Origin: an uncultured Candidatus Saccharibacteria bacterium
GTDB lineage: Bacteria; Patescibacteriota; Minisyncoccia; Phycocordibacterales; UBA2100
Direction of reading: 5' to 3'
Assembly (NCBI GenBank): GCA_964534465.1
Contig: CAZHOB010000002.1
Location: 29,725 to 93,724, forward strand
Length of the DNA stretch: 64,000 nucleotides
Below are positions 42,001 to 48,000 of the stretch, piece by piece (the first letter of the stretch is position 1; each line of letters starts with the position of its first letter). Made by a program: the position numbers.

Positions 42001-45000
42001 CGCGAATGCAGCGGGCGGGATCGACCTTTTTATATTTTCGATACTGCAGGCGCTCAATCTGCCATACCCCACTGATCTAAAGCAAAAACCGGCTCGCATG
42101 ATACGTTTTTGGAAAGAATTTTATGTCTGAGCATGGTCAGGTCCATGCGGCGGACTACCTCCTTGAATACTTGTACTCAAAAGGTGTGCGGCGAATCTTC
42201 GGAATACCCGGCGATGAGCTCGAGCTTTTTGATGCGATCGGCCACTCAAAAGTGAAATTCATCACGACGCGTCACGAGCAAGGCGCGGCGTTCATGGCGG
42301 CGGCCATTGGAAAGATGACAGCCCTCCCCGGAGTGTGTATTTCGACGCTTGGACCCGGTGCTGCCAATTTGGTGACGGCAGTGGCCGATGCGCATCAAAG
42401 TCGCATTCCGCTCATAGCACTGAGCGGTCAACTGGAGAGCACACAACACTCTGTGAAACCACTCGCGCATCAATATATAGATCTTGAAAAGTTATTTGCA
42501 CCAATCACAAAAAAGACCTTTTTCATCAAAAGGGCCGATGACATTATTCCTGTGATCGACGAAGCGTTTCGCATCGCCCTTGAGCCTCGCCAAGGTCCTG
42601 TCCATATCACACTTGCGGCGGACGTAATGGAGGAGGTTGTTCTGAAGCGTCCGTCTACACGAGGAACAATTCACCGGGAAGTACCTATTTCATCCGCCCC
42701 CATTGAAGTCGCTCTCAAGCTCATCCAGGGATCATCCTTCCCCGTAGCTTTTTTGGGACAGAATGCGCTCTCGATGCCCTTTTCGGCTCGGAAAGTCTTC
42801 GAGAAGGCAGGTGTTCCTGTTGTGACCTCTTTCACAGGAAAAGGGAGCTTTCCAGAAAATAGCCCCTGGTCGCTCGGTGTGGTGAGCCGCCATGTTAAGG
42901 ACCGTTTGTCGGAGATTTTTGACAAGGCAGACCTCTTCGTGGTGTATGGGTATGATTACGTCGAGGGTGTTCATCCGCGGATCTTTGAAGGGAAAAAGGT
43001 ACTACTCATCGATGCCTCTCCTGCAAAAGCAGAAAAAATATTTAAACCGCAAGCACAGATAACTGACATGCGCATGGTAGATGTGCTATGTGAAAAGATG
43101 CTTCGCGGAGCTTACCGAAGTCTTTGGGAACAGAAATATATTACAGAAATACGGGCGGATCGTGAGAAACACGTACTGCGCGGACAAGACATGGAAAGTT
43201 ACCCGTTCAATCCATTTAAGGTTATTCACGCACTTCAACGAGTCAGCTCGGGTAAGGAAATGATCGTGTCCGATGTGGGCATTCACAAACAAGTGTTGGG
43301 TATGGGTTATAAAGTGACCAAGCCGCACGGCATCCATTTCTCGAACGGTTTATCGACGATGGGCTTTGCCCTGCCATTTGCCGCGGGGCTGCGAAATGCA
43401 TTACCGCGATCCGGCCCTATCATCGCCATCTGCGGTGACGGCGGATTTCTTATGAACGTTCAAGAACTCGAAACGATCCGCCGGTACGACCTCGACGTAA
43501 AAGTGGTCGTATTTGTCGACAATGCTTTCGGCATGATCAAGGCGAATCTGATCGGGAAATATAAGCGTGTCAGGAATTTAGATTTTTCCAATCCGGATTT
43601 TGAATTACTCGCACGAAGTTTTCGTATCGATCACATGACGGCCGACGAGACAACGGACCTTGAGGATTTCTGGCGAAAGATCCTGCGGCATAAGGGGCCG
43701 CTATTGGTTTCAATTCCAATTCGGTACGCATGATCAAGGCAATTCTCTTTGACTTGGACGATACGCTTTACCACGAGGAAGATTTCGTAAGAAGCGGGTT
43801 TCGCGCGGTGGCTCGCTATGCGGCATTGCGTCTCGATTCGACAGAGGCGGAGCTTTACAAATCCCTTTTAAAAATATATAGGCGTGATGGGCGCGGTCAG
43901 ATATTCGATGTACTTCTCAAGCGCCACGACAAGCATTCCAAAGCATTTGTTAGGAAGCTCATTCAGGTCTACCGTACTCATCTGCCCAACATCGCGACAT
44001 ATCATGGCACCATGCCCACGTTACGAACGCTTCAAAAGGGCTATGTATTAGGCTTGATCACTGATGGAATGGGAAGCGTGCAGCGTCGCAAGGTCCGCGC
44101 CCTTAGGCTCAATAAATTGTTCAAAAAAATTATTTATACTCACGACAAGGGAGTGAAATTTGCCAAACCGTCACCGGTCCCGTTCCTTCACATGCTGCGG
44201 GCGCTCAAGATCAGATCGGGGGAAGCAATATTCGTGGGCAATAATCTGGTTAAAGATATTGCGGGGGCGGAGAATGTCGGTATTCGCGCCGTACACATGC
44301 TGCGCATTAAAAAAAAGTCCGTCACACGGAAGAAAGACAACCACTTTATCATTCGCAGTTTGCGAGAATTACCGAAAGTGCTGAAACGTATCGAATCGTA
44401 ATGAAATTCGATCACCGCTTCTTTCCCATCACGCCCCGAAGCGTGAGATAGTTGCTGTATTTCCTGTGTCGCCAGTCTTTGAAATGACCTTTTCGCATCA
44501 TACGTACGATCTCGCGTATCGAGTCCGAGAGAGAGTGACGAGTCCTGAAGCCAATAACATCACGGATCTTTTTGAACGAGACGTGATAGTCGCGTCGGTC
44601 TTTCACGCCATTGAGATGTGTGATCCTTGTCCCCGGCAGGTGCTTTTGCACCTTTTCAGCGATCTCAACGATACGGTAATTCTCGCTGTTGTCGCCGACG
44701 TTAAATATTTCTCCCGAGACCTTCTCGAGCGGGGCCTTGAGAGCCGCGAGCAGTGCACGTGCCGCATCGTCCACGTGCACCAGCGGGCGCCATTGCGATC
44801 CGCCGTCTACTGTGATGTGTTTGTTGAAAAATGCGTGCGCTGTCATGCCATTGACCACAAGATCGAAACGCATGCGACCGGAATACCCATAGAGAGTTCC
44901 GAAGCGCAGGATGATCGGATGGAAATTCGGCCCTGCAGCGCTCAGCAGCTCGCGCTCAGAATACAGTTTGCTTTTGGCGTACAAAGATACGGGCCGCAGC

Positions 45001-48000
45001 GGGCTGCGTTCGCCGGAGCGCGATGTGCTTGTGCCGTAGACGCTGCACGAAGATGAGAACAGAAAACGCGACACTCGATAGTGTTGGCACAGATCGATAA
45101 GGGCCTTGGTGGCAAAATGATTTTCCTCCATGGTCCGGATGGGATCGAGCGCGCATGCGGGATCGCCGACGACGCCGGCAAGATGCACCACTGAATCAAC
45201 ATCCTGCATCGCCTTGATCAGCGTGTTTATATTGCCAATGTCGCCCACGATGAGCTTGAAATTCTTGTTGCGATACAGGTCTTTAATGCCCGAATCTCCA
45301 AAAAGGAGTTTGTCGAGAACGACGACGCGGTACCCGACTTTCAGGAGATGCCGACAAAGGTGCGAACCCACATACCCGGCACCCCCTGTCACAAGAACAG
45401 TGTGCAGTGTCTTCTTTTGCTCTTGTAGATCCGTATACAATCCGACGACACGTTTTTTGTCGTCGAGTATCGGGATCGTATCGATGGTTCCTGTTTTGAA
45501 TACTGAAGGGCGCGATGCGAGCGCCTTGAGGCCCTTTTGGGAGGTGCCAAGGGGCGCCCAAACGAAATCGGTATTCATGACCGATTTCAATGGGGCTTGC
45601 GGATCGGCGCCTTTCATAAGTCCTTGTCTGATATCTGCAAGCGTAATGATGCCTAGAAGCCGGCGTTTCTTGTCACAAACGAGGCACATGGTAGTGCCCT
45701 TGCGATAGAGGTCGCTAATAGCCCGCTCTATCGAGGTCGATGGGGGGTATATATACCGTGTGATCGTGCGCTCGAGCATGCTTTTTGGTTGTGAAGGGAT
45801 TATATACCAAATTGACTGTAATGGAAAAACGTCGCGAGATGTGTATACTGACGCAATGACATCAAAAACACCGGTCATTATCGAAGGCGGACTCGCTGTC
45901 GATGACCGCGGGCAGCTATCGTTCGTGAACGGCTTTTCCCTAGAGGGGGTCAAGCGTTTCTATCAGATCGAGAATTTCTCATTGGACACCATACGCGCTT
46001 TTCACGGACACATGAAAGAGGCGAAATATTTTTATGTAGCCAAAGGTTCAGCGATCGCCGCGGCAGTGGAGCTCGACGATACTAAAAAACCCGACAAGAA
46101 AAATAAAGTGGAGCGATTCGTGCTCTCGTCGCGAAAGCCGTCGATACTTTTTATTCCGGCCGGACATGCCAACGGTTTCAAGGCTCTCGAAGCAGGGACG
46201 GTGCTTATTGTTTTTTCCACATCGACGCTCGAAGAATCAAAAGGCGACGACTACCGCTTTCCCCACGATTATTGGGGAAATGCCGTCTGGGAGACGGAAA
46301 ATCGCTGATCCTTGTTCTTTTAAAAGGCAAAATGATATAGTCCAACAATGATCCCATATTCCAAACAAGATATTAATGCCGACGATATCAAGGCCGTGGT
46401 CAAGGTGCTCAAATCTCCATTTGTCACGCAGGGACCGGTGGGTAAGGAATTTGAGGCCGCCCTCGCGAAATATTCCGGCACCAGACACGCTGTCGTTTTC
46501 AATTCCGGCACCTCGGCGCTTCATGCGGCGTATTTTGCCGCAGGAGTCGGCCCGGGCGATGAAGTCATTGTGCCCGCGCTCACTTTCGCTGCCACAGCCA
46601 ACTGCGCTCTTTATCTCGGCGCGAAACCCGTTTTTGCGGACGTGGATCCGGATGTCGGCACCATGAGCGTAGCGAGTGCGCAAAAACTCATCACCAAGAA
46701 AACGAAGGTTCTTGTGCCTGTGGATTACGGCGGCCGTCCGGTAGACGTGGATGGATTGAAAGCGGTCGCCAAAAAAAATGATCTCGTTTTTATTATCGAC
46801 GGAGCGCAGAGCCTCGGCGGTACATATAAAGGCAAGCCCGTCGGGGCACATGCCGACATGACGATGTTCTCTCTCCACCCGGTCAAATCGATCACTTCCG
46901 CAGAAGGCGGTGTGATCGTCACGGACAGCGACGAGTATGCAAAAAAGCTACGCCTTTTCCGCAGCCATGGCATAACCACCGATAAAAATGACCTCGTGCG
47001 CAAAGATCAGGGCGCGTGGTACCAGGAAATGCAGGCGCTTGGATTCAATTACCGCATGACCGAAATGCAGGCGGCGCTCGGTATGAACCAAATGAAACGC
47101 CTCGATTCATTCATCAAAAAACGCCGCGCCCTCGCCGATCGCTATTACAAAGAGCTCGCCGGTATCAAAAATATTATTTTGCCAAAGCCGGATAGTGCAG
47201 GTGCGCGCAGCGCGTGGCACCTCTATCCAATTCGGGTCAAAGACGCCTCGAAGCGCAACGAGGTCCTCGATAGATTACGCGCCGCAGGCATTTTTGCGCA
47301 CGTCCACCATCTTCCCGTTCATCGCCATCTCTACTATGAGCGCCTCGGATACAAAGAAGGCATCTGCCCTGTCGCCGAAAATTTCGTTGCCGCTGAAATT
47401 TCGATACCGGTCTATCCCACAATGATCAAAAAGGAGCAGGACATCGTCATTAAGGCTCTCCGAGGGATCATGGCTTCGTATTCTTGATGTGCGGAGTATT
47501 TCTGTTAGATTGCTCACATGAGTACCACCCAAGAAGCGCATGACCTCTACAACTCGTTCGTTCAGAACGTGAGCGTTGATCGTTTGCAAAAGATCCTCAC
47601 GCGCTATGAACAAATGAAAATGATCGAGAATGTGCCCGGCGACATCGTCGAGTGCGGCGTATTCAAAGGGACCGGTTTTTATACATTTGCAAAACTGTGC
47701 CGTATCATGATGCCGAACAGCGGTCGAAAACTTATCGGCTTCGACCTGTTCGGTACGAAGATCGCAACAAAACTTACGAGGGCGGATGACAAAAAATTTG
47801 TCGATTGGCATGTCGATAAGACCGTAAAAAAAGAGGAGATAGTAAAAAATTTGGCAGCGCATGACATTCACAATGTGGAGCTGATCGCGGGAGATGTAAC
47901 ACGCACGACCAAAGAGTACGCCGCCAAAAATCCCGGATTTCGCATTGCGCTCTTATATCTCGACGTTGATAACTATGACGGCACCATGGCGATCTTGAAG

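Follow-up and report, generated by a model that had tools for sequence, protein, structure and literature searches.

A conserved ATP-grasp, acetolactate-synthase-like and HAD gene triad in a surface-glycan region of an uncultured Saccharibacteria bacterium is a candidate cassette for the N-acylation of sugar amines

Introduction

Two described glycan systems lie closest to the locus reported here. The sfmABCDE genes of Shewanella oneidensis, which encode a NeuB-like protein, a thiamine pyrophosphate (TPP) enzyme, a reductase, a methyltransferase and an ATP-grasp protein, are needed for a mono-N-acetyl pseudaminic acid (Pse) that carries an extra O-methylated C9H16O7 moiety (PMC3765264). In Campylobacter jejuni, the ATP-grasp enzyme Cj1438C forms a glucuronamide with serinol phosphate or ethanolamine phosphate, after which the haloacid dehalogenase (HAD) enzyme Cj1435 carries out the dephosphorylation (PMC11800379). 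Here we analyze a 64,000-nt stretch of DNA (the window) from an uncultured Candidatus Saccharibacteria bacterium (assembly GCA_964534465.1, contig CAZHOB010000002.1), in which an acetolactate-synthase-like thiamine diphosphate (ThDP) enzyme is encoded between the genes of an ATP-grasp ligase and a HAD hydrolase. An earlier note on this DNA had read the interval 42123-47487 as a single five-gene pathway to a branched or C-acylated amino-deoxysugar, with the ThDP enzyme likened to YerE. Our analysis points to two separate glycan modules in that interval, and to a role for the ThDP enzyme in a three-gene cassette that begins upstream of it.

Further described families frame the comparison. What defines YerE-like enzymes is carboligation onto CDP-3,6-dideoxy-4-keto-glucose, a sugar made by their own gene clusters, which also encode a YerF-type reductase (PMC9306805). 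They are associated with lipopolysaccharide (LPS) and belong to the same decarboxylase superfamily as the enzyme considered here (PMC12247030); JanthE, with structures 8rph and 8rpj, is one of them (PMC12188165, PMC12247030). Cj1427, to which we return for the second module, is a GDP-heptose C4-dehydrogenase (PMC10680097).

Results

The ATP-grasp, ThDP and HAD genes form a conserved, translationally coupled and co-inherited triad, all on the plus strand of the window, whose open reading frames (ORFs) were annotated by Pfam and NCBIfam scans across essentially their whole set. The first gene (41093-42130) encodes a predicted carboxylate-amine ligase with PylC-like_N, ATP-grasp_3 and ATPgrasp_Ter matches in Pfam; the second (42123-43733) encodes a 536-aa AlsS-like ThDP enzyme with TPP_enzyme_N, M and C domains; and the third (43730-44401) encodes a 223-aa HAD-IA phosphatase-type hydrolase with a DLDDT nucleophile motif. 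The stop of the ATP-grasp gene runs 8 nt into the start of the ThDP gene (ATGTCTGA), and the ThDP stop and HAD start overlap by 4 nt in a shared ATGA. All five ORFs that the earlier note had placed at 42123-47487 (ThDP, HAD, a CBS-pair fusion to a short-chain dehydrogenase/reductase (SDR), cupin and DegT) are present, and so is the ThDP/HAD coupling that it described. That coupled pair was incomplete, however, in that the upstream ATP-grasp gene had been overlooked; since this gene ends inside the ThDP gene, the coupled unit is ATP-grasp/ThDP/HAD. Nor are the five genes one run: the CBS-SDR gene lies on the minus strand (44412-45779), converging on the HAD gene with stop codons 10 nt apart and diverging from the cupin gene across a 76-nt spacer (45780-45855), so that the five cannot be a single co-directional operon. 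The spacer contains one promoter-like site per strand; neither the promoter-like count over the region nor the terminator scan exceeded chance, and the positions of the two sites are only suggestive.

The same three genes were found together in 11/11 of the non-redundant cassette loci recovered, a count that is a sample of at least 11 such loci and not a census. The order ATP-grasp, ThDP, HAD holds in eight, whose ThDP enzymes are 51-59% identical to that of the window; the contigs on which a PylC-like ATP-grasp gene lies directly upstream and a HAD gene directly downstream of the ThDP gene are labelled L001/L002, L003, L004, L005, L006 and L095-L098. In three loci (L007, L008 and L089; ThDP enzymes 37-38% identical) the order is ThDP, ATP-grasp, HAD, and here too stops and starts overlap. 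Divergence runs in parallel across the triad, with identities of 47-60% for the ATP-grasp protein, 51-57% for the ThDP enzyme and 32-47% for the HAD protein. The set of CBS-SDR, cupin and DegT genes does not accompany the triad in the other cassette loci. As controls we used the loci of generic acetolactate synthase (ALS)-like genes from a scan of genome contigs with the clade alignment, which rests on generic ThDP motifs; the best match listed had 36% identity and none was a clade member. Triad partners occurred in 0/80 of these loci among the matches listed (32-36% identity, flanks of up to 10 kb), and L090, a match at 36% identity, has no triad and an unrelated context.

The triad is rare. 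Among 5.8 billion proteins, the relatives of the ThDP enzyme comprise about 15 clusters at 51-54% identity, followed by matches at 39% or less, and a word-indexed search returned nine homologues of the ATP-grasp protein, whose metagenomic relatives were sought with an alignment of the five closest sequences. We found no description of an ATP-grasp/ThDP/HAD triad in the searchable literature.

The ThDP enzyme has the motif CGDGGFLMNVQ, with the GDG of its GDG...DN signature at residue 438, and the catalytic glutamate of HEQ at residue 51; the RFDDR motif of acetohydroxyacid synthase (AHAS) type is absent from the sequence. Its best NCBIfam match, PRK08322, reached 415 bits against a cutoff of 509, and the equivalogs for AlsS (TIGR02418, 284.5 against 551.1 bits; PRK08617, 316 against 510) and for biosynthetic AHAS (TIGR00118, 306.9 against 538) also failed. 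Neither a small-subunit (ilvN) gene nor an acetolactate decarboxylase gene was found among the scanned window ORFs. In line with these scores, with the missing ilvN-type gene and with relatives that always lie in glycan loci, the enzyme is not a housekeeping IlvB, a grouping by which the earlier note would have been refuted.

In searches of the PDB, a profile of the clade scored highest on catabolic acetolactate synthases (311-334 bits), followed by AHAS (232-289) and the carboxyethylarginine synthase CeaS (243), with BbmA (211-212), 5ahk (206), pyruvate oxidase (about 198) and JanthE (8rph, 170) at lower ranks; a search with the single sequence keeps this ranking, with AlsS at 229-237 bits. 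The entry 5ahk is presumably PpYerE, and the YerE comparison consists of the scores on JanthE and 5ahk. By these scores the clade appears closest to the FAD-independent catabolic ALS enzymes. Like AlsS of K. pneumoniae (1ozf) and B. subtilis (4rjj), the window enzyme combines the three-domain ThDP fold with the HEQ glutamate and GDG...DN, lacks RFDDR, and has its top PDB scores there. Unlike them, it is only about 30-35% identical, stays below the equivalog cutoffs, has no acetolactate decarboxylase partner, and belongs to a glycan-locus operon that also encodes an ATP-grasp ligase and a HAD hydrolase.

The likeness to YerE is not supported by this comparison (170 bits on JanthE against 311-334 on AlsS). 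The YerE-like enzymes YpYerE, PpYerE, ErwE and JanthE share with the window enzyme the decarboxylase superfamily and a place in LPS or glycan loci (PMC12247030, PMC9306805), yet the window enzyme shows far lower similarity and has other obligatory partners, and membership in the subclass appears unsupported because the window has neither a CDP-3,6-dideoxy-4-keto-glucose cluster nor a YerF-type reductase. The supply of CDP-4-keto-3,6-dideoxyglucose that the earlier note invoked is likewise missing from the window, in which an RfbF-type cytidylyltransferase, DdhC and DdhD were not found. The gene at 17715-18755 that had been called a CDP-glucose-4,6-dehydratase reached 176 bits against the 278-bit cutoff of that equivalog; as its scores on the CDP-glucose (176 bits), dTDP-glucose (173 bits) and LegB (165 bits) dehydratase models are almost equal, its nucleotide class is ambiguous. 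With this dehydratase ambiguous and no CDP-hexose genes found in the window scans, a CDP-hexose pathway was set aside, as was a phosphonate pathway, for which the same scans showed no PEP mutase.

The two partners of the ThDP enzyme suggest what chemistry it may serve. The profile of the ATP-grasp protein is nearest to L-amino-acid ligases. The HAD protein has TIGR02253 as its NCBIfam match (131 bits, below the cutoff of 170) and, among its nearest PDB entries, PH1655 (69 bits) and N-acylneuraminate-9-phosphatase (45-49 bits); HAD proteins throughout the cassette retain the catalytic DxDxT, Thr, Lys and acidic motifs. Taken with these nearest solved relatives, the catalytic motifs point to a phosphorylated intermediate.

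More distant relatives of the ATP-grasp protein (24-36% identity) lack the ThDP gene in 16/16 cases among the matches listed; 7 of these 16 have PIG-L within a few kb, 4 have DegT nearby and 3 have HAD directly downstream. The ATP-grasp and HAD pair occurs without a ThDP gene in L092 and L110-L112, and other supply enzymes take the place of the ThDP enzyme at distant ATP-grasp genes: L102 has an ornithine/diaminopimelate-type (Orn/DAP-type) decarboxylase there, and L112 a PALP enzyme accompanied by additional ATP-grasp proteins. ATP-grasp proteins of 27-29% identity were observed in polysaccharide loci on haloarchaeal megaplasmids, namely a plasmid of Haloarcula sp. GH36 (L092) and pHME505 of Haloferax mediterranei (L091). 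In the Haloarcula locus, the ATP-grasp gene overlaps a HAD-IA gene, and the neighbors encode a polysaccharide deacetylase, a DegT protein, WecB and a nucleoside diphosphate (NDP)-sugar dehydrogenase. The haloarchaeal ATP-grasp and HAD genes thus indicate that the ligase and hydrolase pair is older and broader than the ThDP-containing triad. Within the window itself there is a second PylC-like ATP-grasp gene (51521-52471, within 50105-52471), distantly related to the first (72 bits on the cassette hidden Markov model); it follows genes for a benzil-reductase-like SDR and a YfcE-type metallophosphoesterase, and a called ORF for a methyltransferase (52185-53396) overlaps it. This neighborhood suggests a second putative amide decoration in the same locus.

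The amino-sugar pathway next to the triad is probably pseudaminic-acid-like, because the DegT protein passes the PseC model and PseI and near-threshold PseB genes are adjacent. The DegT-family sugar aminotransferase (46348-47487, plus strand) scores 461.4 bits against the cutoff of 423.5 for the PseC equivalog TIGR03588; pseudaminic acid synthase PseI (39128-40174, minus strand) scores 488.9 bits against 340.25 for TIGR03586; and a PseB-like inverting UDP-GlcNAc 4,6-dehydratase (38109-39098, plus strand; Polysacc_synt_2, 300 bits) falls just under TIGR03589 at 398.2 against 407.75 bits. PseG and PseH had no match in any Pfam or NCBIfam scan of the window ORFs, and the PseF equivalog reached only 28.5 bits, a SpsF/KdsB-like CTP_transf_3 gene being present at 49258-50001. 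By these genes, the amino-sugar branch named in the earlier note appears to be of the pseudaminic-acid kind.

Related pathways surround the cassette elsewhere. The nonulosonic acid (NulO) type is represented by PseI in the window and in L001 and by a NeuB-type synthase in L005, which are also the three loci where a TPP enzyme, an ATP-grasp protein and a NeuB-family gene occur together as in sfm. An Arn-like set of genes, comprising an ArnA-C/UXS-like SDR, a small GT2, a 2-epimerase, an NDP-sugar dehydrogenase and PMT_2 (an ArnT-like GT-C), is found in L004, L007 and L008, with DegT, formyltransferase and deacetylase genes added in L007 and PIG-L in L004; in such surroundings, an amino sugar on a lipid carrier may be unmasked deliberately and then acylated. 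In L006 the cassette neighbors are GFO/MocA and 2-epimerase genes. PIG-L or a polysaccharide deacetylase is encoded in 7/11 cassette loci, and the NulO-type, Arn-like and diamino-uronic-like pathways of these loci all expose a sugar amine.

The genes downstream of the triad belong to another module, as one metagenome-assembled genome (MAG) contig makes plain. In L093 (GCA_030648265.1) the CBS-SDR, cupin and DegT genes are 72-75% identical to those of the window and likewise divergently arranged, with the cupin (72%) in the same position and the DegT gene (75%) next to the cupin and CBS-SDR genes, and the flanks are collinear: the ABC exporter, GmhA, HldD-like SDR, GT9 and methyltransferase genes at 55-71% and a CTP-transferase-like gene at 46%. 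What L093 lacks is the 9.2-kb block 35221-44401, which in the window carries genes for a Capsule_synth-like protein, a class-III aminotransferase (36731-38053), PseB-like, PseI, a methyltransferase and the ATP-grasp, ThDP and HAD proteins; the L093 contig has its ABC exporter directly beside the CBS-SDR gene. Because L093 keeps the CBS-SDR/cupin/DegT unit without this block, the interval 42123-47487 spans two modules: on one side lies part of a Pse/triad block that was either inserted here or deleted from L093, and on the other the resident CBS-SDR/cupin/DegT unit. The Pse genes and triad of 35221-44401 thus appear to be a portable block between the ABC exporter and the CBS-SDR gene. The single five-gene pathway is not borne out, given that the ThDP and HAD genes are co-inherited with the ATP-grasp gene and not with the CBS-SDR, cupin and DegT genes, from which they part in L093; as a genuine conserved unit of their own, the latter three stand.

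This second module (44412-47487) plausibly carries out C4 oxidation of an NDP-sugar, then epimerization or isomerization, then transamination, to judge from its predicted enzymes. The CBS-SDR fusion (455 aa from the ATG at 45779) is of GalE/C4-oxidoreductase type, with the motifs GGAGYVG (GxxGxxG), SSSCSVYG and YAKSK. One CBS repeat of the proposed pair passes Pfam (39.7 bits), and the second is only inferred from an N-terminal extension of about 125 aa; a CBS pair suggests control by an adenosyl ligand. The fusion family (about 455 aa) has more than 100 clusters, many of them from Parcubacteria, and in L094, a NeuB-containing locus, the CBS-SDR gene is translationally coupled to a DegT gene. 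A role as NulO 4,6-dehydratase, which L094 had prompted us to consider, was ruled out: the dehydratase acid pair (TDE, or S-T-D-K before YxxxK) is absent from the protein, which has SSSCSVYG instead, as in the GalE type. The best NCBIfam match is GalE (142 bits, below the cutoff of 262), and the best PDB match is 6vo6/6vo8 (155 bits), presumably Cj1427.

The cupin (150 aa, most likely 45856-46308, plus strand; RmlC/FdtA clan) is a putative NDP-4-keto-sugar epimerase or 3,4-ketoisomerase. It passes both dTDP_sugar_isom (35.8 bits) and FdtA (25 bits, cutoff 23) in Pfam with weak scores, and FdtA, the family named in the earlier note, is the lower-scoring of the two; its PDB matches, to RmlC-like proteins or heptose epimerases, are weak (E 0.003-0.9). 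Its RAFHGH sequence (HxH) resembles the FdtA/QdtA 3,4-ketoisomerases rather than RmlC with its RGLHxQ. The module shares with the pairing of a Cj1427/Cj1430-type C4-dehydrogenase and epimerase a cupin partner and, in both the window and L093, adjacent GmhA, RfaE-II-like, HldD-like and GT9 genes. It differs in that Cj1427 has no N-terminal CBS pair, in the very weak matches and FdtA-like HxH motif of the window cupin, and in a third partner that is a PseC-type aminotransferase and not a C4 reductase. The substrate could be a heptose, by its neighbors, or an N-acetylhexosamine (HexNAc) of the Pse branch.

The entire 64-kb window is a surface-glycan region. Many GT4 and GT9 transferases, an ABC exporter and the heptose genes GmhA, RfaE-II-like and HldD-like were annotated in it, together with a nucleotide-sugar dehydrogenase, an AsnB-type amidotransferase, a carbamoyltransferase and several methyltransferases. 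A second ThDP-dependent sugar pathway, mostly on the minus strand, occupies 21118-29505. It includes a split transketolase (N-domain at 24310-25068, pyrimidine-binding and C-terminal domains at 23427-24305), a zinc-dependent alcohol dehydrogenase (25065-26093), an SDR (26138-26878), a C-terminal fragment of a PfkB-like kinase (22655-23425), a NUDIX protein (21118-21762), an NDP-sugar dehydrogenase (27633-29021) and an RfaE-domain-II-like nucleotidyltransferase (29026-29505). At 6954-10327 (minus strand), a 948-aa fusion of a NodU/CmcH-type carbamoyltransferase with a SAM-dependent methyltransferase lies beside a small SxtJ-like protein (9956-10327), a pairing that resembles SxtI/SxtJ of saxitoxin clusters. 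The genes at 4560-6948 (plus strand) are for a UbiA prenyltransferase that has a HAD/PGP-phosphatase-like domain at its N terminus and, after it, for an SDR; we take this arrangement to recall the decaprenyl-phosphoribose synthase/phosphatase/epimerase logic of arabinan precursors. In the 651-aa ORF at 1564-3519 (plus strand), a partial UDP-glucose/GDP-mannose dehydrogenase, which has the N-terminal and central domains but not the C-terminal one, is joined to a GT4; the ORF may be a fusion or a gene in decay. Finally, the stretch 53393-58000 has a lower GC content (0.45-0.47 against about 0.51 elsewhere) and encodes a FemAB-like GNAT protein (53393-54391), a partial DegT-like ORF (55172-56164) and an aminotransferase that passes the cutoff of TIGR04422, 'PLP_IMCC1989' (56175-57128); it may be a separately acquired module for aminoacyl decoration.

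Discussion

The gene content and co-inheritance of the triad provide a framework for proposing what it makes. We give a probability of roughly one half to the interpretation that it produces an unusual acid and links this acid as an amide to a sugar amine. In such a scheme, the sugar amine would first be exposed by transamination or de-N-acylation. The ThDP enzyme would decarboxylate a 2-keto acid, with pyruvate as the type of donor, and condense it with a second carbonyl compound to give an alpha-hydroxy-keto acid; a phosphate on one partner or on the product would be removed by the HAD enzyme; and the ATP-grasp enzyme would activate the carboxylate of the acid as an acyl phosphate and join it to the free amino group of the amino sugar. 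Because the window has PseB-like, PseC-type DegT and PseI genes and PseH was not found, the acceptor probably lies on the Pse branch, where it could be the 4-amino group set by the PseC-type DegT enzyme (the future N7 of Pse) or Pse itself. The outcome in the window would be a Pse with one non-acetyl N-acyl group.

The precedents of sfmABCDE and of Cj1438C with Cj1435 make this scheme credible. Like sfm, which combines a NeuB-family gene, a TPP 'IlvB-like' enzyme, an ATP-grasp gene and a methyltransferase, the window contains PseI, methyltransferases and two ATP-grasp proteins. The sfm set differs in having an ATP-grasp_4 ligase, a 3-oxoacyl reductase, no HAD gene and a flagellar/Maf context, and no flagellin or Maf domains were seen in the window scans; SfmB (SO_3262) has 581 aa, and its likeness to the 536-aa ThDP enzyme of the triad is by description only. 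The C. jejuni pair shares with the triad an ATP-grasp gene in a glycan locus that is operonically linked to a HAD gene and, as proposed for the triad, forms an amide from a phosphorylated block that neighboring genes supply (PMC11800379). Cj1438C, however, is TupA-like and fused to a GT2, whereas the window protein is of the PylC-like_N/ATP-grasp_3/ATPgrasp_Ter kind, and the C. jejuni blocks come from pyridoxal phosphate (PLP) enzymes and are placed on the glucuronic acid carboxylate, whereas the cassette has a ThDP enzyme and no conserved PLP enzyme. ATP-grasp amide ligases that decorate glycans and have genes of their own to supply the building block are a kind already known, and what would be new here is an acetolactate-synthase-like carboligase as the supplier.

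Several observations weigh against N-acylation of a sugar amine. The absence of PseH, which would otherwise point to a free amine, is negative evidence only, and PIG-L was not found in the window itself. Cassette carriers have so far come from metagenomes and MAGs only, and their glycans are known from genes alone. In L102 the distant ATP-grasp gene lies downstream of one for an amino-acid decarboxylase, an enzyme that would deliver an amine and not an acid; the haloarchaeal ATP-grasp and HAD pair sits with uronic-acid genes; nucleotide-sugar dehydrogenases or NeuB, which would fit amidation of a sugar carboxylate, are common near the cassette; and 4,6-dehydratase-type SDRs, which make 4-keto sugars, are frequent there, so that a ketone acceptor is conceivable.

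The main rival is the reverse chemistry, in which the ATP-grasp enzyme would activate a uronic or nonulosonic carboxylate and couple it to a phosphorylated amine and the HAD enzyme would then remove the phosphate from the amide, the amine skeleton coming from the ThDP enzyme by, for example, decarboxylation of 3-phosphohydroxypyruvate and subsequent transamination. ATP-grasp followed by HAD is exactly the C. jejuni reaction order (PMC11800379), nucleotide-sugar dehydrogenases or NeuB occur in most cassette loci and in the haloarchaeal loci with an ATP-grasp gene (with or without HAD), the ligase of L102 is paired with its decarboxylase, and the class-III aminotransferase at 36731-38053 lies in the same block as the triad. 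Carboxyl amidation is weakened, however, because the conserved cassette has no aminotransferase and the product of the ThDP enzyme would carry no amine; in addition, the ATP-grasp protein is PylC-like/ATPgrasp_Ter and not TupA-like as Cj1438C is, and, across the wider ligase family, the partners that recur most are de-N-acetylases and DegT proteins, the makers of sugar amines. We consider carboxyl amidation unlikely.

Less probable still is C-branching in the manner of YerE in yersiniose synthesis, whereby the ThDP enzyme would place an acyl-anion equivalent on the C4 carbonyl of an NDP-4-keto-6-deoxy sugar or its HexNAc counterpart. The dehydratase-type SDRs just mentioned lie near the cassette in the window (PseB-like), in L003/L095/L098, in L004, in L007 and in L008, and YerE-like enzymes are themselves LPS-associated members of the same superfamily (PMC12247030). 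Yet YerE-like structures give the clade much poorer scores than AlsS, AHAS or CeaS do, the window scans revealed no CDP-3,6-dideoxyhexose genes and no YerF-type partner tied to the ThDP enzyme, and the DegT, cupin and CBS-SDR genes segregate independently of it; moreover, C-branching would leave the invariably linked and coupled ATP-grasp and HAD genes without a role. Last, that the gene is an ordinary acetolactate synthase paralogue that came to lie in a glycan island by chance, with no dedicated glycan function, is very improbable: its top PDB and NCBIfam matches are indeed acetolactate synthases, but it falls below every ALS/AHAS equivalog cutoff (415 against 509, 316 against 510 and 307 against 538 bits), has no ilvN or acetolactate decarboxylase gene in the window, and is linked to ATP-grasp and HAD genes in the glycan loci of 11/11 relatives against 0/80 of the generic ALS-like genes among the matches listed. 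Together, these comparisons support the general idea of the earlier note, that the ThDP enzyme serves sugar modification, while its YerE or branched-sugar version does not hold.

If sugar-amine acylation by the triad is right, the chemistry of its product could be new. A more specific and more doubtful proposal is that the cassette, as a complete route of three enzymes, installs an undescribed N-acyl decoration, a branched alpha-hydroxy-beta-keto (acetolactyl-type) or related polyhydroxy-keto acid that the AlsS-like carboligase would make from a phosphorylated central metabolite, by means of a new sugar-amine subfamily of ATP-grasp ligases that would be portable between pseudaminic-acid, Arn-type and diamino-uronic-acid pathways.

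The separation of the two modules matters for the annotation of this island, since the interval at 42123-47487 is a junction of two mobile glycan modules and not one pathway. When nonulosonic and diamino sugars carry N-acyl groups other than acetyl, this affects antigenicity, recognition by phages and the immune system, and flagellar function, and the genes for most of these groups are unknown, an example being the extra C9 moiety on Shewanella Pse, which was left unresolved (PMC3765264). Should sugar-amine acylation by the triad prove true, the cassette would allow unusual glycan decorations of uncultured bacteria to be recognized from their genomes and would provide an enzyme set for the chemoenzymatic tailoring of amino sugars, and acetolactate-synthase-like enzymes, which annotation routinely mistakes for IlvB, would gain a new role in physiology.

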